Shown piece after piece: positions 94 through 43,071 of a stretch of 64,000 nt of DNA. A program made the translations under genes and the position numbers. Source of the stretch: a virus. Its lineage: Duplodnaviria; Caudoviricetes. The stretch is taken from the IMG/VR virus record IMGVR_UViG_3300005512_000001, positions 64,001 through 128,000 of that record. One strand, written 5' to 3'. The notes beneath the pieces are model-generated. The model searched no databases. It saw only the letters and a list, made by a program, of their open reading frames with translations, and was not told the origin of the DNA. Each line of letters opens with the position of its first letter. Position 1 is the first letter of the stretch.

Positions 94-122
94 TTGCTGC
101 TGGCGGCTATGCGCAGCACCAC
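94..122 (+). promoter_or_regulatory. C-for-T sigma70-like promoter
   Basis: TTGCTG-N17-CACCAC; T-free tract 111-154; followed by AGGAG and the ATG at 173. Confidence 0.7.
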
Positions 123-172
123 GACACCACGACACCACGACACACGACGCGCACTATGAATAGGAGAGAGTT

Positions 173-493
173 ATGAATTTCGAAGTCGTCTTGACCAGTA
201 CGGACCATGGATTCCACAAACGTGGCTTGGGCCAAACCCCATCGGTCGCCTTGACCAATGCATTTCGGAAGGTTTTGAAGTCTGAAATGCCTGCAGACCG
301 AGAGGAAGCTATTGACCAGATTGGCCCACAGGAAGTGGGTCAGCATTTCATGATGGTCAGTGTCTCAGATGAATTCCTTGAGAATCCCAAGACGCTCAAG
401 GAAGAAGTGCATGATTACATGCTCATCATCCGGGTCGATAAGTCCAAGGAAACGATGTACACCATCGCTGGATGGATTCGGCCAATTTTCTAA
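173..493 (+). CDS. hypothetical protein
   Basis: 106 aa ORF with AGGAG RBS downstream of the promoter motif. Confidence 0.75.
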   Translation: MNFEVVLTSTDHGFHKRGLGQTPSVALTNAFRKVLKSEMPADREEAIDQIGPQEVGQHFMMVSVSDEFLENPKTLKEEVHDYMLIIRVDKSKETMYTIAGWIRPIF

Positions 494-503
494 GAGGTAA
501 TCT

Positions 504-1334
504 ATGTCGATTTCAACAGAAGAAGTCTTGAAGACCGTTGAGTTAGCCATCACCCATTTCCGTAAAACGGCATTAACGGAAGAAGAAGTCTTGAAGACCG
601 TTAATGAGGTACTTGGTGATCATATCAATGACATAATCTTAAATATGGTTGGTATGAAGAAGTCGAGATGGGATAGTGGTTATGAGGTTGTCCATCCTAG
701 TATAGTCGATGCGATTATTAAGGACAAAATTACAGAAGGCGTCGACAAATTTCTTAATGAAGTTGCTAGTTCTATAAATTTAGCCCCCACCAAGCAACAA
801 TTGGCAGCGATTAAACGCAATGCCAAATCGAAGTATCTAAATGCCTTGCGAGAAGTAGTCACAGAATCTGTTGTGAAGCGTGCAAACGACGACGCTGCTA
901 AATTGACCCAACTAATTGTAGGAAGCCCCACTAGGGTTGCGGATTTTATCCGGCATTACCGTAGCAACCATATAGAGGCAACCGAAGAGATAAATACAGA
1001 ATTTAAATCTGGTGCAGTTCTTGAGGCAGCAGTTGCTGAGTCCTTAGTGCATGTCGATAGTATAGGGAAAATAAGCCCAATTTCTGTCGAAGACCCTTCA
1101 AATACGGATGTTAGGGTTCTCGTGCGGGTCACTGACAAATTACTGCACCAATCCGCCCATATAGTGGTAGATGGCGAGAAGTGGCAACCTGCTGTCTTGT
1201 GGCATGAGGATGGGGAATATTATTTAACATCAGAATTCAACTGGGGCGATCATGCAGTATTTTCCCTTATGGGACCAGCTGATAAAGTGATTATAAATGA
1301 GGCAGTACAGAAGTTTGTGGATGCTACCCCTTAG
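504..1334 (+). CDS. hypothetical protein, C-terminal DP/xDG family domain
   Basis: GAGG RBS; C-terminal EDPS...VVDGEKW...ADKVIINEAVQKF motif shared with other ORFs in the window. Confidence 0.7.
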   Translation: MSISTEEVLKTVELAITHFRKTALTEEEVLKTVNEVLGDHINDIILNMVGMKKSRWDSGYEVVHPSIVDAIIKDKITEGVDKFLNEVASSINLAPTKQQLAAIKRNAKSKYLNALREVVTESVVKRANDDAAKLTQLIVGSPTRVADFIRHYRSNHIEATEEINTEFKSGAVLEAAVAESLVHVDSIGKISPISVEDPSNTDVRVLVRVTDKLLHQSAHIVVDGEKWQPAVLWHEDGEYYLTSEFNWGDHAVFSLMGPADKVIINEAVQKFVDATP

Positions 1335-1414
1335 GGTCGTCTTGACACTCCCTTTGGCTCACGTCGCCATCTATCTATCCATGATATAGTAGAACACCCC
1401 GAGCCTGCATGTAA

Positions 1415-1443
1415 TTGACGACGCGGGCGTAGCGTTACACTAC
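1415..1443 (+). promoter_or_regulatory. C-for-T sigma70-like promoter
   Basis: TTGACG-N17-CACTAC, intergenic, followed by AGGAG. Confidence 0.7.
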
Positions 1444-1459
1444 GTGTTGTAGGAGATGG

Positions 1460-2140
1460 TTGATGCTATTAAGTGGTGACAGACAAAATGTGATTTCCTG
1501 GCTGGTAGAGAATATGGATTTATATACCGAGCAAGGATATAAATTCCATCGTGGCGACGGGAGCCGACACGACCGCCATGAATTGTCTATTAAACTTCCA
1601 GGTGTCATCTGCCATCTCAACAATAATGAATTCCAAATCCGATATAGGACGCATAAAGGCGGATACAATACACAATATTGGCGACTACCATGGAGTAGTG
1701 AAAGAGAAATAACCACAGAAGAAAAAGCCCTCCAGCTTCTTGACCACATGAAAGAGAAATCAGAGACTACTCCACTGTGCCCCAAAAGAATCACATCTAA
1801 ATCTCAATTGCCTTGCCCCTACCAATTTGTCACCAATATTGGATATGAAAATGGTGTTGCTGTGTCGTGTCAGGTATTGCGTGATTGCAAAGTAATAGAT
1901 ATTGTGGCGATTTCTAACAATCTGAAATTGATACGGCCATCTGAACCCGGCACCAATCCATGGTTTCTATTTGAATGCCAAACTCATACTAGTGGGCGGT
2001 TATGGGTCATTGTTAATACCAATGGGTATTATGAGGTTTCACGGAGCCAAAAAGTACAGGGGAAATTAAGACACTCAGAATTGACGAAATCAGACAAAGA
2101 ATTGATTTCATTAGCAATACGAAAGTTTGCAGATGGATAA
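1460..2140 (+). CDS. hypothetical protein, DP/xDG family
   Basis: SEPG...VNTNGYY...LTKSDKELISLAIRKF. Confidence 0.65.
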   Translation: MMLLSGDRQNVISWLVENMDLYTEQGYKFHRGDGSRHDRHELSIKLPGVICHLNNNEFQIRYRTHKGGYNTQYWRLPWSSEREITTEEKALQLLDHMKEKSETTPLCPKRITSKSQLPCPYQFVTNIGYENGVAVSCQVLRDCKVIDIVAISNNLKLIRPSEPGTNPWFLFECQTHTSGRLWVIVNTNGYYEVSRSQKVQGKLRHSELTKSDKELISLAIRKFADG

Positions 2141-2167
2141 TTATAACATTTTTGTGGGAGAATATTA

Positions 2168-2437
2168 GTGCTTGCACAAAATATATGTTTTGTTATCACG
2201 ATTGCGGGAGAGCAGCAAATCTATGCCATTACTGATGTTGGCGGGAACCTTCTCAGATGGCTAGAGGTGTTGTCCACGTGCATACCTGATAGTTCAGTCA
2301 CCGGGACGATTAGTGCTGGTGACAACGGAATGCATTTTGGTGTTTTCAACTACCACGAATTCCGTACGCTGCTAAAAGCAATAGGCTATGGTGACGCCAT
2401 AACCACTGCTGATATATTATATCAGAAGACCAAATGA
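2168..2437 (+). CDS. hypothetical protein
   Basis: GGGAG RBS, GTG start, stop overlaps next ATG. Confidence 0.6.
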   Translation: MLAQNICFVITIAGEQQIYAITDVGGNLLRWLEVLSTCIPDSSVTGTISAGDNGMHFGVFNYHEFRTLLKAIGYGDAITTADILYQKTK

Positions 2438-2838
2438 CCGCAAAGAACATATGGCTAGAGTTTGAGCAAAGCCAAATTCCAACTATAATTATACGGAATC
2501 GCTTAACATGGTATGGCAGTATATTCCTAACTAGAATATCAATAGCATCATATGTCTATGATGAAGGCAGTCTAATAGTCTGGTCCAGAGAAACAACCGA
2601 CCCCAATATGCCAGTAATGTTCTTGATTAATTATTTAGGGTCAACCTACAAGGCGGCATATCCACACCACATCGTAACAGACGGCGAAAAATGGTGCCCA
2701 TTAATTCAAGGCAATAGACATAAATGGAGGTCGTACCCAGGACAATATTATGGGTCTAACCTCACAACCGAGGACCAGCAACGACTATGTATCTACATTG
2801 AAAGCTACATAAGTGAAATAACCGAGGACCAGACATGA
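2434..2838 (+). CDS. hypothetical protein, DP/xDG family
   Basis: TDPN...IVTDGEKW...LTTEDQQRLCIYIESY; ATGA overlaps. Confidence 0.65.
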   Translation: MTAKNIWLEFEQSQIPTIIIRNRLTWYGSIFLTRISIASYVYDEGSLIVWSRETTDPNMPVMFLINYLGSTYKAAYPHHIVTDGEKWCPLIQGNRHKWRSYPGQYYGSNLTTEDQQRLCIYIESYISEITEDQT

Positions 2839-3731
2839 GTATAATCGTACAGGCCAAAGACCTTCTTGCGTCTATACCTGGAATAGAATTGTGGGATATG
2901 TCCATCATCTATGATGATGATGCTGGGTGTGACCCGCCACTTACGAGGCTCAGTGTCGTGCTTAAACGGGGTAAGAGCCGCTGTAATATTCGCTTTATGC
3001 TCGAAGATTCTTATGAGTGGATTACCCCATCAGACGGACGGAATGAAGACATATTCAATACAATAAACACATTAATAAATGCTGGGTTTAGAACTAGAGT
3101 AGCTTTCCAGTTTACTTTGCGTGATTCACTTCTTAATTTTAACACTGAATACATCACCGCGTCTAAGGACAAAGCACGCATTTTATGTTCTTGGCGCGGC
3201 GATGAGCTATGCATAGAGATAAAAGCCAGAGTCAGGGGCAAGCATTATAGAAGGATTCGAATACCACAAGATATATCCCTGGAAAATGCAATTATATTTG
3301 CTGATAAGCTTATCGAATCTATGAATGCAACAACGTATGAAAATATAACTCCTCCAAACATATTTAAACCCACAAGCTACTCTAGTCACAAAGAATATGT
3401 TGGTGTCGGCGGCGACCCAGGGAATAAAATAACAATGAAAAAGACTGATAGACTGAGGTCTATATCAGTAATTGATGCCGCCTGTTTGCAGCCAGATGGA
3501 GGATTCACATTTGACACTGCAGACCCTGGCAATAAACACGTATGGATTATTGTTTATGCTATAGATATCGAGGGGTTACAACGCGTATTGGCAGTGAACG
3601 GTGATGAATGGTATGAATTAGATGGCAAGAAGTATTTATATATAGGCATGCATATTGACGACCTTACCACAGATGACCAGTTGTTTATAAACGATTGTAT
3701 TAATAACTGGGCGGTGACTAGTCAAAGTTAA
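2835..3731 (+). CDS. hypothetical protein, DP/xDG family
   Basis: ADPG...AVNGDEWY...LTTDDQLFINDCINNW. Confidence 0.7.
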   Translation: MSIIVQAKDLLASIPGIELWDMSIIYDDDAGCDPPLTRLSVVLKRGKSRCNIRFMLEDSYEWITPSDGRNEDIFNTINTLINAGFRTRVAFQFTLRDSLLNFNTEYITASKDKARILCSWRGDELCIEIKARVRGKHYRRIRIPQDISLENAIIFADKLIESMNATTYENITPPNIFKPTSYSSHKEYVGVGGDPGNKITMKKTDRLRSISVIDAACLQPDGGFTFDTADPGNKHVWIIVYAIDIEGLQRVLAVNGDEWYELDGKKYLYIGMHIDDLTTDDQLFINDCINNWAVTSQS

Positions 3732-3735
3732 AACC

Positions 3736-4323
3736 ATGGCATTAGAATTCACATTAGATAATCCAATTCTTGGCGTTCAATATGAACGTAACGCACTAGA
3801 TGCATACCTCAGGAATTTTGTCGTGCTACGTCGATACTCTAAGATAAATAATTTTGGAGACGAGCTAGATGCGATTCTAATCAGACATGGCGGCGAAAAA
3901 TTGGCGTCCTTAGATGTTGAGGATTTGCCAGAAGAAGAAAAACAAAAGATGGGCGGAATGCTGCCAACCCTTAAACGAGCCATAGACACAGCACAAATAG
4001 AATTGAAAGACGAGATTGACGCTGGCCGAAAAGGCGTCAAACCATTTATAGACTCTATAGATTATAGGTTTAAGAACAAAGATGGGCGTCTAATTAATTT
4101 TAAATTGGACCCAGATGCCCGTGCATATAGAACACTTCAAGAATTCGAACAACTTCTATACAGTCTCCCAAATGGTGAGGAAATCGAGGCACAATTTTTA
4201 CCGACTTTTCAACTATTGCGTAGAGAGATGGTTAATTGGGGTTGGGACGAAAAGGATGCCAGCCCCCAAGCAACACTACTAACTATCAAAAAGCTTTGTG
4301 ATCAATGGTCTAATCATGGTTAG
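3736..4323 (+). CDS. hypothetical protein
   Basis: 195 aa ORF in a tightly packed operon. Confidence 0.65.
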   Translation: MALEFTLDNPILGVQYERNALDAYLRNFVVLRRYSKINNFGDELDAILIRHGGEKLASLDVEDLPEEEKQKMGGMLPTLKRAIDTAQIELKDEIDAGRKGVKPFIDSIDYRFKNKDGRLINFKLDPDARAYRTLQEFEQLLYSLPNGEEIEAQFLPTFQLLRREMVNWGWDEKDASPQATLLTIKKLCDQWSNHG

Positions 4324-4430
4324 TGGTGATAGGAGACTATCATGCTGCGATGGTTTAAAAAGATATTCAGGCTCAGACATAGACCTAATATTAAATTAGA
4401 GCTGAAATTTTTGCGTAAGATGGCTGGCCG

Positions 4431-5042
4431 ATGAAACTCACTTTGGGTTATTCTGAATTTGAATGTTCTAATGTTGGAACCAGAGTGCGATATGTTCATT
4501 GGTATGCGGCAGGCACTTATCTGTCTTTAATAGAGAAGAAATATCAGATTGTGGGTCATTGCCGTATTGATTGGCACCCTAAATTTGGCCAGCGTCAATA
4601 TGTCGATCATAAATTCATATTCAAACCTAGAATCAAGCAAATGCAGCACGATGGCATAAATGCATTTAAGATAGTTGAAAATGATGGTGAATTAAATGAG
4701 GCTGCAGCGGACCTCTATGACAATAGAACACCGATACGATTTTGTATAACAAAAATCAGAGATAGGAAAACCATTGTCGGCAATCGTAATGGTAAATTAG
4801 TAGCTAATTTAACTGACCCACAAACGAAGCCATTAGTTAAGCTGAGCATAATCCTGTCTCCCAAAATTCGATATCACACAGATTGCCATCTATATGTTTA
4901 TAGTGATGGCACTGCTCACTATGAACGGCGACCTAAAACATCATTCCTAAGACCCATATCCTTCTGCGCAGAAGACGCACAGAAAATCTATGTCGCTGTA
5001 GCAGAATGCGTTAGGGATTTTGCAAAGCAATACTTGTTATAG
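4431..5042 (+). CDS. hypothetical protein, DP/xDG family
   Basis: TDPQ...VYSDGTAHY...AEDAQKIYVAV. Confidence 0.6.
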   Translation: MKLTLGYSEFECSNVGTRVRYVHWYAAGTYLSLIEKKYQIVGHCRIDWHPKFGQRQYVDHKFIFKPRIKQMQHDGINAFKIVENDGELNEAAADLYDNRTPIRFCITKIRDRKTIVGNRNGKLVANLTDPQTKPLVKLSIILSPKIRYHTDCHLYVYSDGTAHYERRPKTSFLRPISFCAEDAQKIYVAVAECVRDFAKQYLL

Positions 5043-5062
5043 CGTGTCCGGCGTCACACCAG
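5034..5062 (+). promoter_or_regulatory. C-for-T sigma70-like promoter (weaker -10)
   Basis: TTGTTA-N17-CACCAG, T-poor leader, GAGGAG RBS before 5110. Confidence 0.55.
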
Positions 5063-5109
5063 ACGCGAACGAGCGTAACCGAGCGTAACACAGAAAAGAG
5101 GAGAGTCAA

Positions 5110-5760
5110 ATGGGTAATGCGTTTACAGCCGCAGCCGCCAAAGCACCTGCAGGGGCGGCATCGAAGAGTAAAAAGTCGCAAAATATCGTAGAAGTGCGGG
5201 ATGATGAGGTTGGGGCTGCTATCGATGAACTTGTTGCGGCCCATGGCCGTATCAAAGCTGCTGAGACAGATAAGAGCATCGCCAGTTCCACGGCTTTGCC
5301 ACACTGTCTTGAGAAGTTCTTGGCGGATTTCGCGGCTGCACAACGGAAGCCTAGCACCATGAAGTTCCGGTCTGAGAAGGGTAATACGGTCACTTTAGTG
5401 GTCCAAGACCGTGGTGAGCGGTATGACGTTTCCGAAGAGCAACACGCCACCATTCTTGCTATCTTGGGTAAGAAAAAGACTGAGGATATTATACTGCGGG
5501 ACATGACATTCTCATTCAACAATGCTATACTCAACAAGCCCGGTGTGATGGATGCACTCGGCGAGAAAATCGGTGAGTTGGTCGCCAGCGGAATTCTGAC
5601 CGGCGATGAAGCTGGTAGTCTGCTTGAGGCTAACCACCGCATGACGGTCCGCAAGGGCGTAGTTGATGACCTCGGAAAATTATGTGATAACGACCCCGAC
5701 CAAATGAAGACCTTGCTTGAGGCTCTCGGCTCACATTCGAGTGCCTATGTCAAACCGTAG
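5110..5760 (+). CDS. hypothetical protein (probably highly expressed)
   Basis: strong RBS, GC-richer codons, own promoter motif. Confidence 0.75.
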   Translation: MGNAFTAAAAKAPAGAASKSKKSQNIVEVRDDEVGAAIDELVAAHGRIKAAETDKSIASSTALPHCLEKFLADFAAAQRKPSTMKFRSEKGNTVTLVVQDRGERYDVSEEQHATILAILGKKKTEDIILRDMTFSFNNAILNKPGVMDALGEKIGELVASGILTGDEAGSLLEANHRMTVRKGVVDDLGKLCDNDPDQMKTLLEALGSHSSAYVKP

Positions 5761-5801
5761 TATTTGTGGTTACACAACCCTAAGGCCCTAAGGAGCGGCA
5801 T

Positions 5802-6293
5802 ATGTATAAAATGGAAATACTTCGCCATATTGTGGAACTTGTTGCCTCTGGCCCTAAAACGAAAAGGCCATGGGATGATATCGTGCTCCGGTATCAAAGT
5901 GCGACAAAAACTACAGTAGACAAAAAATCTTTATGTAATGCATATCACCGCATGACTAAAAAACAGGGGTCGCCAAATCCATTCAGGCGGTCAGCAATAA
6001 ATTCTGATACGCCCATAGTGCAATCCAAAGCACCCAAAGCACCCAAAGCACCCAAAGCACCTGGGACAATTCCAGGGGTAAGAGCAAGGATATACAAGCC
6101 TGACACAAGCCCCGCAGAGAGCTTCGGCTTAGCATTGCAAAAAATAGTTCGTGACACAGCACACCAAGCAATAGAAGAGGCAATACGTGATTTGGTAATC
6201 CGCCTCGAAACCAAAGCCGTAGCCGCCGACCCACAATCCGAGCTTTTCACTGCTGCAGTTGATAAGGCAGTTGAGGACCTCTTTAATCGGTGA
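5802..6293 (+). CDS. hypothetical protein with KAP repeat, possibly DNA-binding
   Basis: AAGGAG RBS; 9-bp tandem repeat AAAGCACCC encodes (KAP)4. Confidence 0.65.
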   Translation: MYKMEILRHIVELVASGPKTKRPWDDIVLRYQSATKTTVDKKSLCNAYHRMTKKQGSPNPFRRSAINSDTPIVQSKAPKAPKAPKAPGTIPGVRARIYKPDTSPAESFGLALQKIVRDTAHQAIEEAIRDLVIRLETKAVAADPQSELFTAAVDKAVEDLFNR

Positions 6294-6306
6294 GCTACAA
6301 AGACCA

Positions 6307-6353
6307 ATGATGAATGAATGCCCTGGCCCCACCCCAGGGCATTCATTCATCAT
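6307..6353. terminator. 20-bp perfect hairpin after gene
   Basis: ATGATGAATGAATGCCCTGG / CCAGGGCATTCATTCATCAT, 7-nt loop; no clear U-tract. Confidence 0.6.
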
Positions 6354-6448
6354 GTCTGTAAACGTGGAATAAGAACTAGCATCCTATTCAGCATGCACGA
6401 CAAAGAACTTTGGCTGAGGCAGCATAAATTCATTATAAGGAATAAAAA

Positions 6449-7309
6449 TTGAAAATTATATTAATCCTTTGCATTTTGGTGCAAATAGCAGAGGGTGGGT
6501 TGATTAGCAAGTTGGAAGCTGGGCACAACCAAAAAGTCGTTTGCATGGGAACTTCACTAACTGCTGGTGATAGATGGGTTGCACCATTAAGGGATTGGCT
6601 TATCAGCCGCTACCCTAGCCAAGTGGAAATGATTAATAGTGGCGTTCCAGGTTCAGAGTCTTCTGATGGTATCCGCGACCTGCAGGTATTAGTCCTCAAC
6701 CACCAGCCCGATGTTTTGTTTATCGAGTATGGGATGAATGATGCTTGGTCTATCGGCGAGGGTTATCCAGAGAAAATCTCGCCAGAAACATCCACAGCCA
6801 ATCTGAATTTCATAATAGATTCACTATTGTTACAAAACCCAAATGCAGATGTGATACTCCAAACAACCAATGCCTCAACGAGCATACATAGGCCGAGATT
6901 GCCATTATATTATCAAGTCCATCGGGATGTTGCAACTGCACGTGGCTTAATGTTAATTGACCAATACCCAGTCTGGGAGAAAATCTTAATAGAGGAACCA
7001 GAACTCTATGCTCAATATGTGAGTGATGGTGTTCATCCATCTGCTATTGCCTGGGGGGCTATTGGGTTCCCTATCATACAATGTAGTCTATTATCAACGC
7101 AATTTATACGCGGCGATATTGACACAGATGGCTTCATAAACGACGATGATTTGTCGATATTGTTATCGAATTGGAATACCGGCGAACAGTGGGAACATGG
7201 CAATTGTGATGGCGCTGGTGTAGTAGGTGATGATGACCTTAGCTATCTATTGGCTAATTGGACCGGCCCGCCCCCAACCGCAATTATCCCAATACGTTTG
7301 CCTTATTAA
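6449..7309 (+). CDS. secreted SGNH/GDSL hydrolase with C-terminal dockerin-like EF-hand repeats
   Basis: signal-like N-terminus; G-T-S-L-T, NSG, GMND and DGVHP blocks; GDIDTDGFINDDDLSILLSNW and GNCDGAGVVGDDDLSYLLANW repeats. Confidence 0.8.
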   Translation: MKIILILCILVQIAEGGLISKLEAGHNQKVVCMGTSLTAGDRWVAPLRDWLISRYPSQVEMINSGVPGSESSDGIRDLQVLVLNHQPDVLFIEYGMNDAWSIGEGYPEKISPETSTANLNFIIDSLLLQNPNADVILQTTNASTSIHRPRLPLYYQVHRDVATARGLMLIDQYPVWEKILIEEPELYAQYVSDGVHPSAIAWGAIGFPIIQCSLLSTQFIRGDIDTDGFINDDDLSILLSNWNTGEQWEHGNCDGAGVVGDDDLSYLLANWTGPPPTAIIPIRLPY

Positions 7310-9721: not shown

Positions 9722-9846
9722 ATTGTTATCTCCTACTATATAAATATATTTGAATAAATTTGCCATGAATATCTACGCTTCATTACGGCAATAATATTAT
9801 GGCAGTATTTGATTGCCGGTAATGGTATTATACACAAAAGCAATAG

Positions 9847-9875
9847 TTATCGTCAAAGGCTTGTTGCGCCACAAC
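9847..9875 (+). promoter_or_regulatory. C-for-T sigma70-like promoter
   Basis: TTATCG-N17-CACAAC, upstream of AAGGAG and the ATG at 9923. Confidence 0.6.
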
Positions 9876-9922
9876 GGCTTGATGACGTTTGGTGGTCAAT
9901 AACACACAGAAGGAGTTGGATT

Positions 9923-10327: not shown

Positions 10328-10330
10328 GTT

Positions 10331-11071: not shown

Positions 11072-11644
11072 ATGGCATATAATAAGAGTAATAACAATGG
11101 CAACCGTAATGGCAACCGTGGCAACCGCAACAACCACAATGGCAACCGCAAATTACAAAAAGTAGTGCACCCGCATTTCGCCGTCCGAAGGCTCCCTCTC
11201 CCGATATTTAGGCATTATCAAGAACACAAACAAGCCGATTCTATTGATAGTTCTCGATTCTATCATTCTGATGGAGAGATACTTATCGAAGTGACTCGCG
11301 ACGATGAATATGACACCTGGACATGGAGGGGCGGTGAATTCCATGTTGCGGCTGACATATTGCCGAAGCAAATCTTCCGGTATTACCGCCAAGGCAAACG
11401 TGAGATTTTCATCAGAGAAACTATGTTTTATCTTGAAGACAAGCAGGTTGTTGTCCAGGTAGACTTGGGCGACACTATTGATATATGGCGATGGCAACTT
11501 GCTAATGACAATAATAACACTGACGATTTCCGTGTTTGGAAGATTGAGTCTAGTGAACCGACAGATGGCGAGGCAGTCGAAGTCGCTACCGCGAGTGAGT
11601 GGGAATTCACCGAGAGTGGTATGATAGAAGAGGATGACGAATGA
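11072..11644 (+). CDS. hypothetical protein with Asn/Arg-rich N-terminus and internal two-fold repeat
   Basis: AGGAG RBS; LP..IFR.Y...K......FY......(I/V).V.....D.W.W occurs twice; ATGA overlap with pncB. Confidence 0.7.
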   Translation: MAYNKSNNNGNRNGNRGNRNNHNGNRKLQKVVHPHFAVRRLPLPIFRHYQEHKQADSIDSSRFYHSDGEILIEVTRDDEYDTWTWRGGEFHVAADILPKQIFRYYRQGKREIFIRETMFYLEDKQVVVQVDLGDTIDIWRWQLANDNNNTDDFRVWKIESSEPTDGEAVEVATASEWEFTESGMIEEDDE

Positions 11645-15518: not shown

Positions 15519-15571
15519 AATGGTTCCTTATTATATTTTTGTTTGTGATATGTGGCATTTGTAATAAGGAA

Positions 15572-15600
15572 TTGCCCATAACAGCGTCGTGCAGCACGAC
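15572..15600 (+). promoter_or_regulatory. C-for-T sigma70-like promoter
   Basis: TTGCCC-N17-CACGAC; T-free tract 15591-15621 to the RBS. Confidence 0.7.
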
Positions 15601-15627
15601 GACGGACAGAACACGAAAGGATAAAAA

Positions 15628-19774: not shown

Positions 19775-19784
19775 CGTTCCGCAA

Positions 19785-19813
19785 TTCTCGCAGCCGCTTC
19801 TGTGCTGCACAAC
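19785..19813 (+). promoter_or_regulatory. C-for-T sigma70-like promoter
   Basis: TTCTCG-N17-CACAAC, intergenic before GGAG and the ATG at 19851. Confidence 0.65.
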
Positions 19814-19850
19814 AGCACGAGACAATGCGCGGCTATCGGAGAAGCTAACA

Positions 19851-27709: not shown

Positions 27710-28075
27710 TTGAAGTACGTCGACCTGAGAGAAATCGTAAAGCAGTTGCACAACAGAGGTATGAGTATAGATGAGATTGCGGAGCAAGCAGAACTTGCCC
27801 CGAAAGATATCAAGGTCATGATTAACAAAGGTAAAAAGTTGATTAGGGCCAAAATTGAGTCAGCCACTCGGCTTCTGCGGCCCACCTATAGGGCTATGAC
27901 ACAACAAGATGAAACAGTTGTGCTATTGAGCGATCGGGATAGGGGCAAATTCCTGGATTGTATGGAGAATCCGCCCGAACCAAATGATAAGCTACTTCGG
28001 GCCGCTAAGAGCCATGAATCACGAACTACAGAAAGCAGCAGTACTGGACAGCCTACTCCGCCAAGCTGGGGCTAG
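27710..28075 (+). CDS. HTH protein with DUF1778 (TacA antitoxin-like) C-terminal motif
   Basis: GMSIDEIAE HTH; LSDRDRGKFLDCMENPPEPNDKLLRAA. Confidence 0.55.
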   Translation: MKYVDLREIVKQLHNRGMSIDEIAEQAELAPKDIKVMINKGKKLIRAKIESATRLLRPTYRAMTQQDETVVLLSDRDRGKFLDCMENPPEPNDKLLRAAKSHESRTTESSSTGQPTPPSWG

Positions 28076-30504: not shown

Positions 30505-30532
30505 TTTACAAAACGCGACAGCACGACACAAA
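30505..30532 (+). promoter_or_regulatory. C-for-T sigma70-like promoter (16-bp spacer)
   Basis: TTTACA-N16-CACAAA, T-free 30508-30536. Confidence 0.5.
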
Positions 30533-31080
30533 AACATAGACCTAAGCCTAAGAGTAGCTATGGCCACTGATGCTATTGTAGTTCTGGAGCACCCAGACCT
30601 CAAAGAGCAAACCCCTTGGGCAATTAGCGAATTTGAAAAATATTGGGATGTATTTGAAGATCGCATCACAAGTGTACGTTAGTTAGCGATTTTCCCACAA
30701 TTCGAGATGAACACATGAACGGCAAGACCGCCCCGGCTAATAAGATTCACCAACTCCGTCCTTACGTCGACTATATCCTTGAAACCCTAGGGATGACCGA
30801 TGCAACCATTACTGATGCCTCCAAAATAGACCATCTATTGGATGCTGAATTATGGGATAAGGACGACCACGGTGAACGCACAGACCTAAATGAGGATGGC
30901 GAGAGATACATAGCCCATATCTCTTCGATTATTGGGGTGAAGATTAAATTGGGTGACCATATCCACGATATCGCCTCTAGGTTCGCCAAGCAAATGTCTT
31001 AATAGCCTGCCGTTATCGGCAGTTTTTTATAAGGGAGACCTTGGTGCTTATACGCCAAGGTCTCCCTACTATATCCGGAA

Positions 31081-31109
31081 TTTCCCCGCCGACGACAGCG
31101 CGGCACAAC
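31081..31109 (+). promoter_or_regulatory. C-for-T sigma70-like promoter
   Basis: TTTCCC-N17-CACAAC; T-free tract 31084-31128. Confidence 0.7.
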
Positions 31110-31357
31110 ACAACGCAGCGGACGGAGCTAGGGCAGGAGTACCTGAGAGTGGGAAACTGCCCTAGATTTATATTAACCTTGGGAAATAATAATGACTGCA
31201 ATCAAACACCAACTCATCAAGGAAGTGCAGATAGTGGCAAGGCACAATATATAATCCCATTTGAGATCGTTGTTATGTTCTTGGTCTCACATGGACACCT
31301 TCAGGCCGATGAGGAATATATCATCAGCTATTCCTGGTAATTGTTAGGAGTCTTACC

Positions 31358-35915: not shown

Positions 35916-36326
35916 ATGATTATTGCAACTAAAAACCCTGACAATCTTGCTATTCCCGGTTTTACAGATTTTGTGCTTTATGACAACGGGACAGAAGAAA
36001 TAACTGTTATTGGGATTAAGGAAATCTTCTGTTTTTGCATGGAGAGCAGAGTCAGAATTCCTAAAATGGAGGGAATTTTGGCGCAAAGTGCCCGGTATTC
36101 GTATCTTTATGCGTTAATATTTGGGAGATTTGGAATTGGGGAGGTTGCGATTCTAAAATCTCCCAAATATTCATATCGATATGCAGTTAACGTTATAAAA
36201 GGCAGATGGATAGAGGGAGAAGATACGATTTACCGAGACCCAGAATGCGGGTTGGCCTATCATAGATGGGTGAAGGATAGGTATCCATCTATTTCTCTCG
36301 AAGACTATCGTTTTATTAAGAAATGA
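35916..36326 (+). CDS. paralog of the 14437 repeat protein
   Basis: MIIATKNPDNL..PGF.DFV.YD.G.EEI; YSYRYAVNVIKGRWIEGED.I..DPE. Confidence 0.7.
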   Translation: MIIATKNPDNLAIPGFTDFVLYDNGTEEITVIGIKEIFCFCMESRVRIPKMEGILAQSARYSYLYALIFGRFGIGEVAILKSPKYSYRYAVNVIKGRWIEGEDTIYRDPECGLAYHRWVKDRYPSISLEDYRFIKK

Positions 36327-36816
36327 TATGGGAATTGGGTATTTTTCTGGGAGTGCGCGAGCTCTCCCGCCGAGCATAACTCCTAATTGGGGGGCTAATT
36401 AGGGTGCAAGCCAACCTCAGACTATAGATTTAACTAGAAAGGTATACCACGGCTTGGGAGGGAAATAGGTATTTGGAAATTGACATATACGGTGATTAGA
36501 CTGGGAAGTTATTGACTCATATCCTACTGGGGAGGGAGTGACATGCACCCTGCTTAGCAAAAATAACTCAGGAGTTAAAAATGGATATAAACGAAATTTT
36601 GAATTGGGTAAGGCAGAGATTGAGAGATGAGCCAGAAATGCACAGCCATGATGAGAGAATGATTTCTCTCGGGAGGCAGGAAGCATTCAATGAAGTTTAT
36701 AGTTATTTGGGCAAGATTTCCGATTCTCTAGTGCCAAGTCCTGAAGAGCAGGTAGATGATGACTGGGTAAGTATCGACGACGTTGGCCAAATCGCCGACC
36801 AGATGTAAATACAGCG

Positions 36817-36848
36817 AGAGGGGACTCCTAATTAAAGGAGTCCCCTCT
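36817..36848. terminator. bidirectional terminator between convergent genes
   Basis: AGAGGGGACTCC / GGAGTCCCCTCT hairpin. Confidence 0.7.
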
Positions 36849-36874
36849 CTTCCTACCGGGGGGTCAGGCCGTCG

Positions 36875-37228
36875 TCAGGCCGTCGCCAGTTCCTCGGCAT
36901 CCCGGACTTCCTCACCGTCCGCGTCGATGAGCTGGAGGCATTCCCAGTCATCCACGTGGCCTTCGGCGTACCCGGCCTTGGTCCAGGACTTCCACTTGGG
37001 GGAGTCGGGGGCCGGGAGCGGGTGCGTCATGCACTCGGCGTCGAAGTTCCGGCCCAGATTCCCACCGTACACGTTGGCCGACGTGAAGGTGTTTTCCTGG
37101 TCATTGACGATCAAGAGGGTGTTTGCCGGGGTTCCGAAATCGTGATCCATCGGCTTCACGAAGACCCGAGTTGCCTGAATGGGCTTCCCACCCAGACCGT
37201 ACAGCTTGCGAAGTTGCTTACTCGTCAT
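36875..37228 (-). CDS. hypothetical protein, paralog of 41820 gene
   Basis: GGGAG RBS; MDHDFGT, QENTFTSANVYG, DAECMTHPLPAPDS.KWK.WTK.GYA shared. Confidence 0.85.
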   Translation of the reverse strand: MTSKQLRKLYGLGGKPIQATRVFVKPMDHDFGTPANTLLIVNDQENTFTSANVYGGNLGRNFDAECMTHPLPAPDSPKWKSWTKAGYAEGHVDDWECLQLIDADGEEVRDAEELATA

Positions 37229-37286
37229 GTCAAATACTCCCATAATGGAGGAATCGTCGCGGGCAAGCCTCTCTCGCCCGACACTT

Positions 37287-37315
37287 TCCGTGTCGCGGCG
37301 TGCGTTGCCGGTCAA
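37287..37315 (-). promoter_or_regulatory. C-for-T sigma70-like promoter
   Basis: TTGACC-N17-CACGGA with CGCGA extended -10. Confidence 0.6.
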
Positions 37316-37778
37316 CTGGGTATTTGGAAATGGGAATTTCCCGTCTGGAAATTCCAAATTGACATGCACGCTACTTAGGGTAGATGAGAATTTCCTGTAC
37401 CCTGCTTAGCCGGAGAATCCTAGTTGCCTCCGCCGCCCCGACGCGACACAAAAAGCGGCGACGGAACACGATGGGACGCTGGGCTTGCACCCCTGACGCC
37501 CCGACCAAGCACCCCCACCAATAGATTATGGCAAGATGGTCGTTGGTGGGTCGGATTAAGCAGGTGTGAGGTTAGCAATCTCGGGTTGGGTTTGACCAAT
37601 AGCCTGCGGAGCGGGCGGGGCTCCTAAGGGACAATTCGAATTGCTCAATTTAAATTCTTTTTTCGTACAGGATAAAGGAATATAGTATGAAAGAAAGAAT
37701 ACCGCCCTAGGGCGTGGTCAGAGAGTAGGCCGAAGAGCCAATATTATGGAGTACCGAGTGTAAAGCAGTGTGAAGTAT

Positions 37779-37808
37779 AGAGGGCCGGGTGATATCACCC
37801 GGCCCTCT
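37779..37808. terminator. perfect 30-bp palindrome/hairpin
   Basis: AGAGGGCCGGGTGAT|ATCACCCGGCCCTCT; related hairpin at 40488-40516. Confidence 0.6.
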
Positions 37809-38173
37809 TAGATTATCCAAGCAGGGCGTAAGTCAATACATCTCCCTATGGATTAGAGTGCGAGATATTTATTGACTTACACCCTGCTTGGTGGGCAGTC
37901 AGGGAAATTTACATCTACGCTGATTAGGTGGGATTTTCTCGTACCCTACTTGGATAAGGGGTCTAGGACGCAAATGGAGAACTCCGGTCCTATGCTCATT
38001 CATTCAAGAATAAAAACAGCAAGGAAAAAGAGGGAAAGCCATCAAGCTCCTTCATTACAGGCTGTACTAAGCACATAACTCTTTTTCACCAAAGCCCTAC
38101 TAACGGGGCTTTCGGGAATATAAACCCTTCTTTGCTGTTTTATTCTAGACAATCAGTGGCCTATTACTAGCTC

Positions 38174-38476
38174 TTAGCTAGTCATATAGCTGTTTTTTTG
38201 GCAGCGATTGCAAATCCCATTGCACTGCTCCCCAACGGTCTGCAGCAGATCGCCGCAATCTATGCAGACCACAACTGGAGCATCCTCGAATTTGGGCTTC
38301 TCGACGTGAGGTGAGTAGATCGAGATGGAGGCCGGATCGCCCATGCAGACTTCTTGGACAATCTCTAGCTCCATGGCTGCTTGGTCCTCGGCAGTGATTC
38401 CGGCAACCATTTCTCCATTCTCATCGAACCAGACTTCAACACCGTTTGCAAATTTCAACTTGATGTAACGCATCAA
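38174..38476 (-). CDS. hypothetical protein with C-terminal Cys4 motif
   Basis: GAGG RBS; CIDC...CNRC. Confidence 0.6.
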   Translation of the reverse strand: MMRYIKLKFANGVEVWFDENGEMVAGITAEDQAAMELEIVQEVCMGDPASISIYSPHVEKPKFEDAPVVVCIDCGDLLQTVGEQCNGICNRCQKNSYMTS

Positions 38477-39946
38477 AGCACCTCGGTCTCGATTTTCACG
38501 AGGTGGCCGCCATTTTGCCAGAACTCGGTGAGTTCATTGACCTTGCGACAGCCGCCTGGGTCTTGTGTGTCATACATCTGCGAGAGTCGGGCTTTCCGTT
38601 TTGCCAGCCATTCATCCAACTCCTCGGCTCGTATGGCCGCGATGATGGAGTCGGCATCTCCCTCGATGTGCCGGATAATGATGATTTTCATGTGTTTCTC
38701 CAGAGGTTGGGGCTTATCCGTGTTCCGTCGCCGCTTTTTGTGTCGCGTCGGGGCGGCGGAGGCAACTAGGGTACATTCTCATCTGATTCCTACTGTGACT
38801 GGACCAGTTCCGGGTCATGGAGTGCCATTGCCGAATCGATGCTCTCGGCTTGGCATACCCACACATCGCCATTGTCCCGGAATTGCAGGATGTTGAGGTA
38901 TGCGGGGGCCATCGCCGGAGTTACCACTTTGGCGAGGGTCAATGACCCACCGGGGATGTTGCCACCCTTGTACCGAAGTTCCTTGGTAGTGACGGCCAAT
39001 TTCCAGCCGTCCAGATAGTCAGGCCCGTATTGTGGGTACTGCTCGTGGGCCTTGTTGAATTGGTCCACTAGCATTTGCTTGATTGTTGAGTTCATTGCCC
39101 TAGGTTCTCCTCGACGTCCATGTAGTAGACCCAACCCGCAAAGTCCTCGCCTTCGACTACCTCTGCGACCTCGATGCAGGCATAGGTGCCATACCCTTCA
39201 ATCTCCCCAGCGATGATGATTGGAGATTCCACGGCTATATCCGGATCACACCCGTAACGACCGGCCTTCAACCTCAGCCGGTCGCCTTCTTTGATTGCCG
39301 CATTGTGGGGTCGCGAGGGGTTATGTTCCTCTCGCCACTGTTCCAAAAAATCCGGTTGGTTCCAGTTCATTGGTCAGTCCTCGCAGGTGCTCACCACTTT
39401 GTGGACCCGGAAGTTCGGGGTGGCCAGAATGTCTTCCATCAGCATGTTGACCATCCGCATGACTCCCCGCCCGTACTTAACCCCGACTGCCGGGTGGAAA
39501 TGGCAGGTCTCGGCAACGACCTCAACGTGCCCAATCCGCCTGTTGTTGTCATGCCCATCCCCGAGGTACACGTTGTGGACTTTGTCGCGGTGGTGAACGT
39601 CACTTGGACGTCGCACAGCGATAACTTCGACTTGGCTTTTCATCGACTTGCTCCCAAAGAAGTGTTGTTCTCGCCCATCTCCTGGTGTCGCAGAGGTGCT
39701 CGCACGTCAACTGCCTACTTGTACGTGCAGAACTTCCCACTTTGGAGTGCCATATCTTGGCCGGGTCGGTCCAGTTCGGCGATGTGGAATCCCTCATTCA
39801 ATCTGGAATCGAAACTGCGAGGGAGTTTCAGGTATTTGGCAGTGCAGAACGGGCAAAATTCCTCGTCGTGGTCGCGTCCGCATACTTCGCAGGTCTCCAT
39901 CCTTGAATCTCCCAATAGTCGCCAAAGAAATGCTTCTCGCCACCTT

Positions 39947-41001
39947 TTGGTGTGACGCGCCGCCGCAGCGGACAACTCCTAAGTTGGCTTCGGTAGGGCA
40001 GCCATCCATTTACTGCCCTGCGGGGACCAATAAATACCAGTCCCGTTCGCTCCGCAGCCGATATGAAGATAAATCATATCTTCATACTCCCCGCCGAGGA
40101 TGAAACTCCCGAGTTTCTCGCCATCCGGCATATTGGGCCGACGGTGGGATCGGAATCCCAAACATTCCAACTCGAATTTCGTCAGTTCGGCCATCTTTCC
40201 ATCGAGCATCCGGAACATTCGCACGATCGGCCCGTCGATGGGGATGATGGGTTTGACGCCGAGAAGATTGAAAGTCTCGGCAAGATGGCGTCTCCAGTCG
40301 TCAGCAACATACATCCCCGGCAGTTCTTTGGTCTTCGACATTTCGAGTCTCCCAACTGGAAATAGAGAAAGGGCACAACCGCCCGCCAAAAAATGGTGTT
40401 GCGCTGGCAGGCCGAGGTCAACTGGGTATTTGGAAATTGACATCTACGGTGATTAGGTGGTTTTCTCGTGCCCTACTTGGATAGACCGGAGGGCCGGGTG
40501 GTATTCCCGGCCCTCCTCGCAATTGCACTGTATCACCAACGGATGGAGCTATTCCTGGACTCTTGGATTCTCCGCTGTTGTTGGCCTAACCTTGCCGAAT
40601 GAGTCCTGCCGGTGCAAGATTAAGGGTTGGCCAGACTAATCCCAGTGCCTCCGGCTAATTCTAGGCAGGTCCTAACCGTAGCCGTATGGCTCGGTGGCCT
40701 GCCGCCGTCGCTAGTTGTTGTGTCGCGCCCGCCTGTCGAGGGCAACTACCCAATCAGTTGCCCCTCAGATTATTCAGGGCGTCGATGTTGGCCTTGGTGG
40801 CCTTGATTTCGGGTTTCAGCGTCGGCCACACTTTCCCAATAATCTGTTTGGCCAACTGCCCCATGATTACCAGCCCGGTAATCCAAACTGCTGAATTACC
40901 AAGGACCTTGGCGAGTTCGATAAGTTCGGTATCCATCACTTGCTCCTAGAAAGGTCTGTTCCTCGTCGCCTTATAGTGGCGCAGAGCTGCGGCCACGCCA
41001 A
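39947..41001 (-). promoter_or_regulatory. four C-for-T promoters
   Basis: TTGTCC-N17-CACCAA (39947-39975), TTGACC-N17-CACCAT (40393-40421), TTGCCC-N17-CACAAC (40717-40745), TTGGCG-N17-CACTAT (40973-41001). Confidence 0.7.
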
Positions 41002-41723
41002 TTACCCATTTCCCTCTGGCGCAGAGCTGCGGCCACGCCAATTACCCATTTCCCCTAAGCAGGGCACAAGAAATCCCTAATCTAATTAGCGTGTGGATAA
41101 ATAAAAAGGGAGGGGTTACCTCCCTTTGTGGTCCGTAATATGCTCTGTAAGAGTGGGGGGCTGCCTTCTACCGCATGATGCACCTCGTTCCAGTCTAGTG
41201 CTTTGTGGCGTTGTTATATCCAACCCAAATGGCAAATCCTGCCAACCAGGTGGTGAAGAGCCATTTCCAGAGTTCCAGGATTTGGTCGCAAGGAATTGCC
41301 ATCAGACCGGAACCTTGAGGCTGAGCCGGATAATCATCCCGGAAACCGTATCGCCGATATTCGTCTCTTTCGGTTCGGTGTGCCAAGACGGAGAACTGCC
41401 ACTCACGCCATGCGGCATATGGAAATTCTCGATGTGCCGGAATGTCACGTAGTCGTTGTACCCGTCGCAATGGTTGGTGGCCATCACGATATCGCCGGTC
41501 TGAACTCCCAACTTCTTGAGTTCACCTATTACGGCGTCGTAGAATTCACCCGGTTTCATTTGAGAATCTCCTCGGCAAGCCGTCTTTGACGGATTTGCTG
41601 CTCGGGGGTTAGGATGCTCGGACCGTAGAGTTGCTCATCGATTGCCCGCAATTGCTCCCGTTCAGAGTCAGTCAGAACCTCTTTCGCGGCCAATGCCCGT
41701 TTTTGGTCTAGTAGTTCCATAAA

Positions 41724-41775
41724 GGAGATGCCCGGATTCGAACCGGGCGATTGTACTTGCTGTACCCGTATCTCC
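41724..41775 (-). ncRNA. degenerate tRNA-like element (acceptor stem plus T-arm, no D-arm)
   Basis: GGAGAT...CCCGG-TTCGAAT-CCGGG-C-ATCTCC; single internal GTAC/GTAC hairpin. Confidence 0.45.
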
Positions 41776-41783
41776 ATGAGACG

Positions 41784-41810
41784 GGGGGAGTCCCATTTCG
41801 GGACTCCCCC
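41784..41810. terminator. intrinsic terminator
   Basis: GGGGGAGTCCC / GGGACTCCCCC directly after stop of the 41820 gene. Confidence 0.7.
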
Positions 41811-41819
41811 CTTTGGCCG

Positions 41820-42263
41820 CTAGGCCGTGGCGGTCTCGGCTTCCTCGACCGGGGCATCGGCGTCGTCCGGTTCGGGGTCGGTGGTGTCGGCGGCGATCGA
41901 CTCCAGGACGATGAAGTCGGAGACCTTACCGGGCGCGTAGCCCTTCTTGGTCCACGCCTTCCACTTGTCGGAGTCGGGGGCCGGGAGCGGGTGCGTCATG
42001 CACTCGGCGTCGTAGCCCTTGCCGAGTCGCTGTTCGTCGCCCGAACCGTAGACGTTGGCCGACGTGAAGGTGTTCTCCTGGCGGTTGATCGCCAAGATGG
42101 ACACGGCGGCAGTGCCGAAATCGTGGTCCATGCCCTTGACCAGCACTTCGGAGGCCGGGATGGGCTTCCCGAGGATGCCAAACCGCTTGCGGGCTTGGGC
42201 CTTCGAGAGGCTGGGGGTCTCGGGGATTTCGACGGTCTCGGTCTTCGCGTTCTTCCTCGGCAT
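41820..42263 (-). CDS. hypothetical protein, paralog of 36875 gene
   Basis: AGGAG RBS, very GC-rich third positions, two tandem promoters upstream. Confidence 0.85.
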   Translation of the reverse strand: MPRKNAKTETVEIPETPSLSKAQARKRFGILGKPIPASEVLVKGMDHDFGTAAVSILAINRQENTFTSANVYGSGDEQRLGKGYDAECMTHPLPAPDSDKWKAWTKKGYAPGKVSDFIVLESIAADTTDPEPDDADAPVEEAETATA

Positions 42264-42323
42264 GGTTGAATCTCCTATATCGTCAACCGTGTTATCAAAG
42301 GGGCGGCGTTCGCCCCGCATCTC

Positions 42324-43071
42324 TTTGTGTCGCACCGTTCGCTGCCGGTCAATTGCCAGTGAAGGTCGTCGTTGTCTCCAATTCCCGACAAAAAGTGGTG
42401 TTGCGCCAGCCGGTCGCGGTCAATTGGGTGGTTGGTGGGACAACTGGGTATTTAGATCGGTGCCCCAGTGGCCTTGAACTCGGCCCAGAATTCATCACTC
42501 CACTCCTCGTATTCAACTACCGAATCATCGGCGTTGATGACTGCCTCCGCGAGATCTGAGGCGTCGAGGAAGTCGTAAAGGTCTCGCCTGTTAACGCCAT
42601 CCTCACCAGCGTGGAGGATATCGAGTTTGCCATTCTCCACCCCGCAATACGCCCATCCGGGACCAAATCCAACCCATACATCGATCGGAATCATGGCTCT
42701 GGCATCATCCTCTTGGGGTGATTTCACCCATCCGAAGTTGCTGACTCGGAATTTCCCCCCATCGGCTCGGATCAGGACGTTGGGGAATGCCGGTCGGCTA
42801 TGTCCCATGTACAACTTGTCGCCATTGTCGAATTCCACATAGGCATAACATTCATGGCCTCGTACTTTTGTCGCTTTCATCCCAATCTCCTAGAAGTGGT
42901 GGTCTTTCGCTCGGTTTTATAGTGTCGCGCCAGCTCACGCCGGCCAATTGGGTATTTCCCACCTAACTACGAGCTGCCCCGTCCTCAGTTAACGTCGCCT
43001 TATCCGTTCGTGAACCACCCCAAATGCCCTTCCCGACAAAAAGTGGTGTTGCGCCAGCCGGTCGCGGTCAA
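42324..43071 (-). promoter_or_regulatory. four C-for-T promoters
   Basis: TTGACC-N17-CACAAA (42324-42352), TTGACC-N17-CACCAC (42395-42423, identical copy at 43043-43071), TTGGCC-N17-CACTAT (42919-42947). Confidence 0.75.
42452..42880 (-). CDS. hypothetical protein
   Basis: AGGAG RBS, own promoter. Confidence 0.7.
   Translation of the reverse strand: MKATKVRGHECYAYVEFDNGDKLYMGHSRPAFPNVLIRADGGKFRVSNFGWVKSPQEDDARAMIPIDVWVGFGPGWAYCGVENGKLDILHAGEDGVNRRDLYDFLDASDLAEAVINADDSVVEYEEWSDEFWAEFKATGAPI

Follow-up and report, generated by a model that had tools for sequence, protein, structure and literature searches.

Which sigma factor reads a promoter whose -10 element is spelled with C where the housekeeping consensus has T? 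The question is raised by a 64,000-nucleotide stretch of phage DNA (Duplodnaviria; Caudoviricetes), bases 64001-128000 of the 341,434-bp IMG/VR record IMGVR_UViG_3300005512_000001, which we call the window. The record, the genome of a jumbo phage, has 42% G+C and direct terminal repeats and was judged complete. An original prediction had listed 21 intergenic sites in the window that combine a TTG-like -35 element with a -10 hexamer beginning CAC, and had read them as sigma-70 promoters rewritten from TGTGnTATAAT to CGCGnCACAAC. We find that this motif, which we call the CAC class, is real and statistically solid. It is apparently a lineage-specific promoter class, and we infer its promoter role and the start of transcription at its sites.

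The CAC motif and its statistics

We seeded a position weight matrix (PWM) on the whole genome, without using gene calls, and it converged on 47 sites. Although only 12% of the genome is intergenic under our gene calls, 43 of these sites were intergenic, and 42 lay within genome positions 3.5-111 kb. The motif reads A-R-TT-K-n-Y, a 17-nt spacer, y-G-C-r-r-C-A-C-n-A, and then a G six bases on. On the -35 side, T-35, T-34 and Y-31 were present in all 47 sites, R-36 in 46, A-37 in 44 and K-33 in 42 (G in 31, T in 11). The extended -10 region had G-16 in 46 sites, R-13 in 43, R-14 in 40, C-15 in 39 and C-17 in 31 (T in 14). Within the hexamer, C-12, A-11 and C-10 were invariant, A-8 was found in 46 sites and A-9 in 25, and position -7 was unconserved (C in 18, A in 15, G in 7, T in 7). 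The G six bases past the hexamer was present in 37 sites.

The same signal emerged from a pattern that had not been trained on the sites. TTK-N16-GC-NN-CAC-N-A matched the genome 45 times, and 33 of the matches (73%) were intergenic; the reversed control pattern gave 8 matches, none intergenic, and shuffled genomes gave 0 to 10 matches (mean, about 4). When the two halves of the matrix were scanned separately, the spacer was exactly 17 nt in all 42 intergenic sites, and versions with 16- or 18-nt spacers occurred inside genes only. T was never found at -12 or -10 in the 47 sites of this 58% A+T genome. More broadly, T on the nontemplate strand fell to 3 to 10% between -15 and +9, compared with about 29% in the flanks, and the spacer was 65 to 76% G+C. 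Versions of the pattern with TAT in place of CAC showed no intergenic enrichment (11 to 14% intergenic). Nor did canonical TTGACA-N16-18-TATAAT sequences with up to two mismatches, of which 25 of 202 (12%) were intergenic; shuffled genomes contained about 133 such matches.

All 21 sites of the original prediction could be read back at their positions, and the PWM independently recovered 20 of them at 22 to 46 bits. The remaining one, at 30505 (+), has a 16-nt spacer; the PWM missed it, and we regard it as unsupported because 16- and 18-nt versions occur only inside genes. The list was correct but incomplete, missing window sites at 39710 (-) and 47431 (-) and about 25 others outside the window, most of which lie upstream of it. 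Its general wording, TTn-N17-CACnnn, was too loose: as TT-N21-CAC it occurs at chance level, with 166 matches in the window and 16% of matches intergenic genome-wide. The YGCRn noted before the hexamer is an accurate description of the bases found there. The proposed equivalence with TGTGnTATAAT holds from -17 to -8, with purines kept at G-16, R-14, A-11, A-9 and A-8 and with C at -17, -15, -12 and -10, but it fails at -7.

In sigma-70 promoters, no T is more conserved than the one at -7. Like the extended -10 promoters of housekeeping sigma-70 (TTGACA-N17-TRTGnTATAAT), the CAC class has two blocks, a TTG -35 element, 17-nt spacing, A-11, purines at -16, -14, -9 and -8, and a similar length of 5' untranslated region. 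Unlike them, it has C rather than T at -17, -15, -12 and -10, leaves -7 free, and is invariant or nearly so at -10 and -8; its spacer is G+C-rich, T-poor and fixed in length. Judged by the features of group 1 sigma-70 promoters, the sites have the -35 element and the spacer of 17 +/- 1 nt and lack the TAnnnT -10 element with its T-12 and T-7. The original prediction had also stated that no such phage promoter class was described, and a literature search turned up nothing to contradict it.

Placement of the sites and the GC-rich island

CAC sites on the + strand lay at genome 3.5-95 kb, among rightward genes, and those on the - strand lay at 101-111 kb, among leftward genes. Most of the class occupies the leftmost third of the genome (up to about 111 kb), and a few more sites lie close to the right end. 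The distance between -7 and the nearest downstream start codon with a Shine-Dalgarno (SD) sequence had a median of 45 nt (interquartile range, 33 to 60). Tandem pairs preceded some genes (42352 with 42423, and 42947 with 43071).

Two other upstream motifs, CAAATATA (about 40 to 58 genes) and GTAWWTA (about 56 genes), cover 110-340 kb. Both are A+T-rich and have no conserved -35 element, which leaves the CAC class as the only one detected in this genome with two blocks. They often sit only 4 to 30 nt before the ATG. They are probably middle or late classes, and some of their transcripts may be leaderless. Judged by position and gene content, the CAC class looks like the early class.

In the window, Pfam recognized genes for gp46/gp47-type recombination nucleases, NAPRTase, a CCA-adding enzyme and a DinG-like helicase. 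No isolated phage matched 30 kb of the window by megablast, the capsid-like protein had no tblastn match among isolates, and gp46 was at most 27% identical to that of any isolated phage, leaving no annotated relative. Searches of the genome by phmmer with T4 gp55, gp45, gp43, gp42 and other T4 proteins found no match, and "T4-like" seems to apply only loosely, via gp46/gp47. Just 5' of the CCA-adding enzyme gene, window 27710-28075 (+) encodes a 121-aa protein that matches a TacA-like antitoxin (E = 1e-5) and has a weak helix-turn-helix (HTH) resembling sigma region 4.

Many of the window sites are concentrated in a GC-rich island (Table 1). Ten island proteins searched against Pfam matched no family and gave no clue to the host. 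Two strong CAC sites head stretches that are free of open reading frames (ORFs) and end in G+C-rich hairpins, window 37424-37810 (+) and 40488-40745 (-). These are candidate small RNAs; an Rfam search of window 34-44.5 kb gave no match. Exact copies of sites extending beyond 40 bp (44 bp) were found at 37424 (+) and 38765 (-), inverted around a 1.3-kb segment, and at 42423 (-) and 43071 (-), in direct orientation around the gene at 42452-42880, which suggests cassette duplication or shuffling at promoter repeats. In its small orphan genes flanked by a repeated early-type promoter and a hairpin, with some copies identical, the island resembles the promoter-early stem-loop (PeSL) cassettes of T4. 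PeSL promoters are canonical sigma-70 promoters, unlike the CAC class.

Other repeats were seen in the island. A second repeat of about 50 nt, GGAAATTGACATCTACGSTGATTAGGTGG..TTTTCTCGTRCCCTRCTTRG, lies back to back with several island CAC sites (37340-37400, 37895-37950 and 40430-40480 on the + strand; 41040-41100 on the - strand); it contains TTGACA, with no recognizable -10 element 16 to 18 nt away. The genes at 36875-37231 (-) and 41820-42263 (-) share long, nearly identical nucleotide stretches, as paralogs would, and neither belongs to a Pfam family. A tandem hexanucleotide, (CAGCGT)n, occupies window 43228-43266 at the island edge.

TABLE 1 CAC-class sites and other features. Site coordinates are window positions.
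Feature	Span	Strand	Remarks
CAC site TTGCTG-N17-CACCAC	92..128	+	PWM 28.8 bits; intergenic; -7 to SD-preceded ATG, 51 nt
CAC site TTGACG-N17-CACTAC	1413..1449	+	PWM 26.4 bits; intergenic
CAC site TTGTTA-N17-CACCAG	5032..5068	+	PWM 22.5 bits; overlaps 3' end of preceding gene; 48 nt to ATG at 5110
CAC site TTATCG-N17-CACAAC	9845..9881	+	PWM 24.7 bits; intergenic
CAC site TTGTTT-N17-CACAAA	11004..11040	+	PWM 37.1 bits; precedes 11072-11644 and NAPRTase gene (Pfam)
CAC site TTGCCC-N17-CACGAC	15570..15606	+	PWM 26.6 bits
CAC site TTCTCG-N17-CACAAC	19783..19819	+	PWM 29.2 bits
CAC site TTTCTT-N17-CACCAA	22408..22444	+	PWM 35.2 bits
CAC site TTTCCC-N17-CACAAC	31079..31115	+	PWM 41.6 bits
CAC site TTGCCT-N17-CACAAA	37422..37458	+	PWM 45.9 bits; no SD-preceded ORF within 400 nt; exact inverted copy of 38765 site
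CAC site TTGACC-N17-CACGGA	37281..37317	-	PWM 34.0 bits
CAC site TTGCCT-N17-CACAAA	38731..38767	-	PWM 44.0 bits
CAC site TTGACG-N17-CACCAG	39676..39712	-	PWM 34.0 bits; absent from original list
CAC site TTGTCC-N17-CACCAA	39941..39977	-	PWM 33.7 bits
CAC site TTGACC-N17-CACCAT	40387..40423	-	PWM 34.2 bits
CAC site TTGCCC-N17-CACAAC	40711..40747	-	PWM 42.4 bits; ORF-free stretch of about 225 nt follows; next ORF 376 nt off
CAC site TTGGCG-N17-CACTAT	40967..41003	-	PWM 37.4 bits
CAC site TTGACC-N17-CACAAA	42318..42354	-	PWM 38.6 bits; proximal member of tandem pair
CAC site TTGACC-N17-CACCAC	42389..42425	-	PWM 33.0 bits; distal member of tandem pair; identical to 43071 copy
CAC site TTGGCC-N17-CACTAT	42913..42949	-	PWM 32.0 bits
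CAC site TTGACC-N17-CACCAC	43037..43073	-	PWM 34.3 bits
Weaker CAC site TTTCTG-N17-CACTAA	47397..47433	-	PWM 23.6 bits; 18 nt to ATG; absent from original list
GC-rich island	36500..43100	-	50-55% GC vs 42% in genome; small orphan genes, each with its own CAC-class promoter; 12 sites
p508, sigma-70-like (suggestive)	61019..62545	-	Model with domain 2 carrying a Cys4 insert, additional beta domains and, at residues 356-432, domain 4; pLDDT 82.5
p215, small sigma-domain-2-like protein, gp55-type candidate	62591..63238	+	Divergent from p508

Candidate readers of the CAC sites

No phage RNA polymerase, single-subunit or multisubunit, was detected by Pfam in the genome, and we therefore assume that the host core polymerase is used. 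The phage does encode at least two sigma-70-like proteins with a putative domain 4, which, together with the lack of a detected polymerase, supports one option of the original prediction, a phage-encoded sigma. Pfam, NCBIfam and PHROGs recognized no sigma in p528, p508, p215 or p745.

The most likely reader is p528 (genome 289790-291376, - strand), a protein that structural and language-model evidence places in the sigma-70 family. In an AlphaFold2 (AF2) model built from a five-sequence alignment, with a predicted local distance difference test score (pLDDT) of 66, residues 142-213 superposed on residues 375-446 of Escherichia coli sigma-70 (Z, 9.8; root mean square deviation [rmsd], 1.7 Å; 70 residues; 24% identity), and all 50 of the 50 best structural matches were sigma chains. 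Longer alignments reached sigma-70 residues ~609-611 (model residues to ~497) at a large overall rmsd, and by eye the HTH seems to be split by an insert. Language-model features of a protein atlas placed p528 among Sigma70_r2/r4 clusters, while its family profile, run against PDB sequences, matched Zn-ribbon proteins only. In a hand alignment, p528 keeps the equivalent of Y430 of sigma-70 and not those of W433, W434 or Q437, the loss of which makes a different -10 specificity plausible. Its homologs numbered only four among 5.8 billion proteins, all on short contigs.

In three relatives (L051:1301-2260, L052 and the P0002 contig), the p528 homolog lies directly downstream of a gene of the adenosine deaminase family (PF00962). 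The gene in the same position here (291424-292341; 305 aa) was assigned by PHROGs only to a family of unknown function.

Over residues 22-432, the p508 model aligned colinearly with more than 35 sigma chains, at Z scores of 7 to 7.5 that are near the tool's background for helical proteins, and its domain 4 region matched sigma domain 4 at an rmsd of 2.2 to 2.5 Å. The model is suggestive of a sigma-70-like protein. There were 34 homologs of p508, and the recognition-helix region was nearly invariant across the 35 aligned sequences; in relatives the gene is syntenic with p215, gp46/gp47 and the helicase. For p215, the atlas gave a feature score of 0.97 to viral clusters, some with Sigma70_r2, and its structural neighbors were all sigma clusters; BLASTP against T4 gp55 was marginal (E = 0.13). 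Inside the p215 gene, a TTGTC-N17-CAA sequence is conserved in three phages, which we judged to reflect coding constraint rather than a promoter. The 745-aa p745 (genome 225654-227891; L037) contains a LAGLIDADG intein, and visual inspection suggests that its exteins may form a gp55-type sigma bearing a Zn ribbon.

We looked across related records and metagenomes for the motif. Homologs of p508 were present in relatives G001 (256 kb) and G002, which share the CAAATATA and GTATTT motifs with this phage. Neither the CAC class nor p528 was found in these two records, which are 70% and 20% complete, and the NAPRTase and gp46 homolog loci and the whole records of G001 to G004 contained no CAC-class sites. 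Because p508 occurs where the CAC class is absent, while p528 and the motif are both rare, elimination would pair p508 with a promoter class shared across the clade and p528 with the CAC class, which is specific to the lineage, an assignment drawn from very few genomes. An exact 16-base version of the motif gave 14 matches in viral contigs, all single. In metagenome contigs it matched at least 117 stretches; the 80 that were listed were each either single or in exact tandem repeats, and no protein is shared between the phage and those 80 contigs. A more distant relative, G003 (235 kb, 57% G+C; L075-L086), has a few perfect canonical promoters, ATAGTTGACC-N17-TATAAT with TG (for example, at 5486, 127838 and 182469), with the same -35 context, ATAGTTGAC, as the CAC class.

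Alternative readings and known systems

The explanation that we put forward, with an even chance of being right, is an orthogonal sigma-70-type promoter class that works on the host core polymerase and has its -10 element read by a diverged sigma, likeliest p528. Two-block promoters would serve the first third of the genome (~3.5-111 kb) and a few sites at the right end. Each would consist of an A-R-TTG-n-Y -35 element, a rigid 17-nt G+C-rich spacer, G-16 C-15 and a C-A-C-n-A -10 element, and the G six bases downstream of the hexamer would be the likely start site. Host core RNA polymerase would carry out transcription, and a sigma with a domain 2 that differs from its housekeeping counterpart through divergence would recognize the -10 element. 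If p528, as a phage member of the sigma-70 family, is that sigma, the two would form an orthogonal sigma/promoter pair, and host sigma-A would not be expected to read the sites. Several observations weigh against this explanation. Searches of p528 against Pfam and NCBIfam, a six-frame search with PF04542 and a profile search of PDB sequences gave no sigma match, so that its placement in the sigma-70 family rests on a model of middling confidence and on language-model features. Its gene is preceded by a GTAAATA-type motif at 291 kb, well outside the early region; were the CAC sites the first to be used, p528 would have to come with the virion or from an unrecognized promoter, and its neighbor genes gave no clue to membership in a virion module. 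The link between p528 and the motif consists of co-occurrence in one genome and absence from two incomplete relatives.

A serious rival, though a less likely one, is that a host sigma reads the sites, either as the housekeeping sigma of a lineage with an unusual -10 consensus or as an alternative sigma that accepts C at -12, with the phage mimicking its host for early expression. Early phage genes normally rely on machinery already in the cell, and the CAC class covers the apparent early third of a terminally repeated genome in which no canonical promoter class was found that could launch a phage sigma. The -35 half (A-R-TTGAC-like) is of host type, and the same ATAGTTGAC context heads perfect TTGACA-N17-TATAAT promoters in G003. 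However, no bacterial housekeeping consensus known to us does without T at -7 while demanding C at both -12 and -10; G001 and G002, both incomplete, are without the CAC class; and the exact motif elsewhere gave only single matches, on contigs that, among the matches listed, share no protein with the phage. An improbable reading is that the DNA chemistry of the phage has shaped the promoters: 2-aminoadenine (Z) would replace A in this genome, and the sites would keep Z off the template strand from about -30 to +10, whether a phage or a host sigma reads them. Since Z pairs with T through three hydrogen bonds, A+T-richness of the -10 element would bring no melting advantage over CACAAC in a Z genome, and a T-free nontemplate strand means a Z-free template strand in the bubble. 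The T-poor stretch and G+C-rich spacer agree with this, as does the extended -10 region, in which purines are kept and the pyrimidines are all C. A PurA-family protein (genome 136319-137569; L041:2320-3567) has GSSGKG at residue 22 and NFINY at residue 360. These are hallmarks of PurZ, for which we required Ser in the P-loop (GSSGKG) and NFxN replacing TKLD. Its phage homologs, mainly from Arthrobacter, Vibrio and Acinetobacter phages, are 27 to 33% identical (best, Flavobacterium phage MaF61 at 33%), and several are annotated as 2-aminoadenine (PurZ-type) synthetases. Against this reading, no DatZ or MazZ partner was recognized beside the PurZ-like gene, whose neighbors have no Pfam or PHROG match; moreover, the rest of the genome, including the A+T-rich motifs with only a -10 element, shows no such avoidance. 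A literature search for effects of Z on bacterial promoter melting or sigma pockets found nothing. The stronger version, in which the code was built for a Z genome by rewriting TRTGnTATAAT to CRCGnCACAA and p528, possibly virion-borne, reads Z at -11 and -8, is a slightly longer shot still.

We give very little weight to the idea that the repeats are not promoters at all but binding sites of a phage regulator, or recombination sites flanking mobile cassettes. T4-type phages shuffle genes between repeated early-promoter elements (PeSLs), and exact 44-bp copies flank island cassettes here, yet the two-block TTG architecture with exact 17-nt spacing fits a promoter, as do 40 sites over 110 kb in same-strand orientation, 33 to 60 nt from SD-preceded starts, and shuffling at promoters would be an added role rather than an alternative. 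Least credible of all is a true -10 element of TATAAT, with the C residues either converted to a T-like base, by deamination or other editing within the virion or during entry, or miscalled from a modified base. Converting C to T does give TGTGnTATAA-like sequences, and the phage encodes a dCMP deaminase, a divergent enzyme of the thymidylate synthase family and a 487-aa protein (genome 193626-195089; L039) in which a MerR-like HTH at the N terminus and a nuclease-like central part are followed by a C-terminal domain of the Mom family (Pfam, E = 2.5e-20; PHROG "Mom-like DNA modification protein"). However, the deaminase (154 aa) is of the nucleotide-pool type, the 487-aa protein possibly modifies adenine, and a search of the genome found no C5 DNA methylase. 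Converted sites would still have a purine at -7 in 22 of the 47 cases, and the invariance of -10 and -8 is unlike that of sigma-70 promoters. Editing would have to strike about five specific C residues per site, on one strand, sparing neighboring C residues of the spacer, at every site; the related proposal that template-strand A is modified and misread would need the same site- and strand-specific action at every promoter, and both are unsupported. If T were the unedited or equivalent base, it should appear at -12 or -10. Since it never does in this A+T-rich genome, whatever reads the sites discriminates C from T, which is evidence against editing and also against the earlier suggestion that a modified C serves as a T mimic.

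We compared the CAC class with known systems. Among alternative-sigma promoters, those of E. coli sigma-32 (TTGAAA-N13/14-CCCCATnT) and of Bacillus subtilis sigma-E, -K and -G (CATA-type) share CA at -12/-11 with the CAC class, and sigma-32 promoters also have TTG about 16 to 17 nt before the CA. They keep T at -10, at -7 or at both, and none is known to have GC at -16/-15 together with CACnA. Extracytoplasmic function (ECF) sigma promoters (GGAAC-N16/17-CGTC type) differ in both blocks, the CAC -35 element being TTG without AAC and its -10 region GC..CAC.A. Sigma-54 promoters differ too, in that the CAC sites have no conserved GG 10 nt before a GC and their blocks are 20 nt apart. Unlike the T4 late promoter (TATAAATA, no -35 element), the CAC class has a -35 element and a G+C-rich -10 region, and by eye its ARTTKnY at -37 to -31 is not the MotA box, (a/t)(a/t)TGCTT(t/c)A, of T4 middle promoters.

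Phage sigma cascades are known from SPO1 (gp28, gp33/34) and T4 (gp55), whose private promoter classes serve middle or late expression, with early genes left to the host sigma. This phage resembles them in that no RNA polymerase of its own was detected and in having several sigma-like genes and several private promoter classes that would act on the host core. It differs in that a private two-block class covers the apparent early third, with a consensus that matches none of theirs known to us, and in that its sigma candidates carry Zn-finger inserts and escape Pfam. Genomic work has also described sigma factors encoded by "group 2" T4-like jumbo phages (PMC7824862). Jumbo phage AR9 has uracil-dependent promoters that its own multisubunit polymerase reads on the template strand (PMC5449584). 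Like AR9, the phage described here may have a promoter code tied to an unusual DNA base; unlike AR9, it has no polymerase that we could find, and its promoter architecture is sigma-70-like.

Phage-private promoters read by phage sigmas are thus already known. What is unusual here is that the host-type -35 element and the purines of the extended -10 element are kept, while the conserved pyrimidines become C and T-7 is dropped, across the apparent early third of a 341-kb genome. Were a phage sigma their reader, sigma and sites would be a natural orthogonal pair of clear-cut specificity, set by C rather than T at positions -12 and -10 and by a spacer fixed at 17 nt. This pair would help to explain DNA recognition by sigma domain 2 and might find use as a part in synthetic biology. 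It would also raise the question of how infection starts without any host-type promoter. Should the PurZ-like gene mean a Z genome, the sites would test promoter melting and sigma pockets with 2-aminoadenine, and if the code was indeed built for such a genome, early transcription would be both orthogonal to the host and dependent on the DNA chemistry of the phage.

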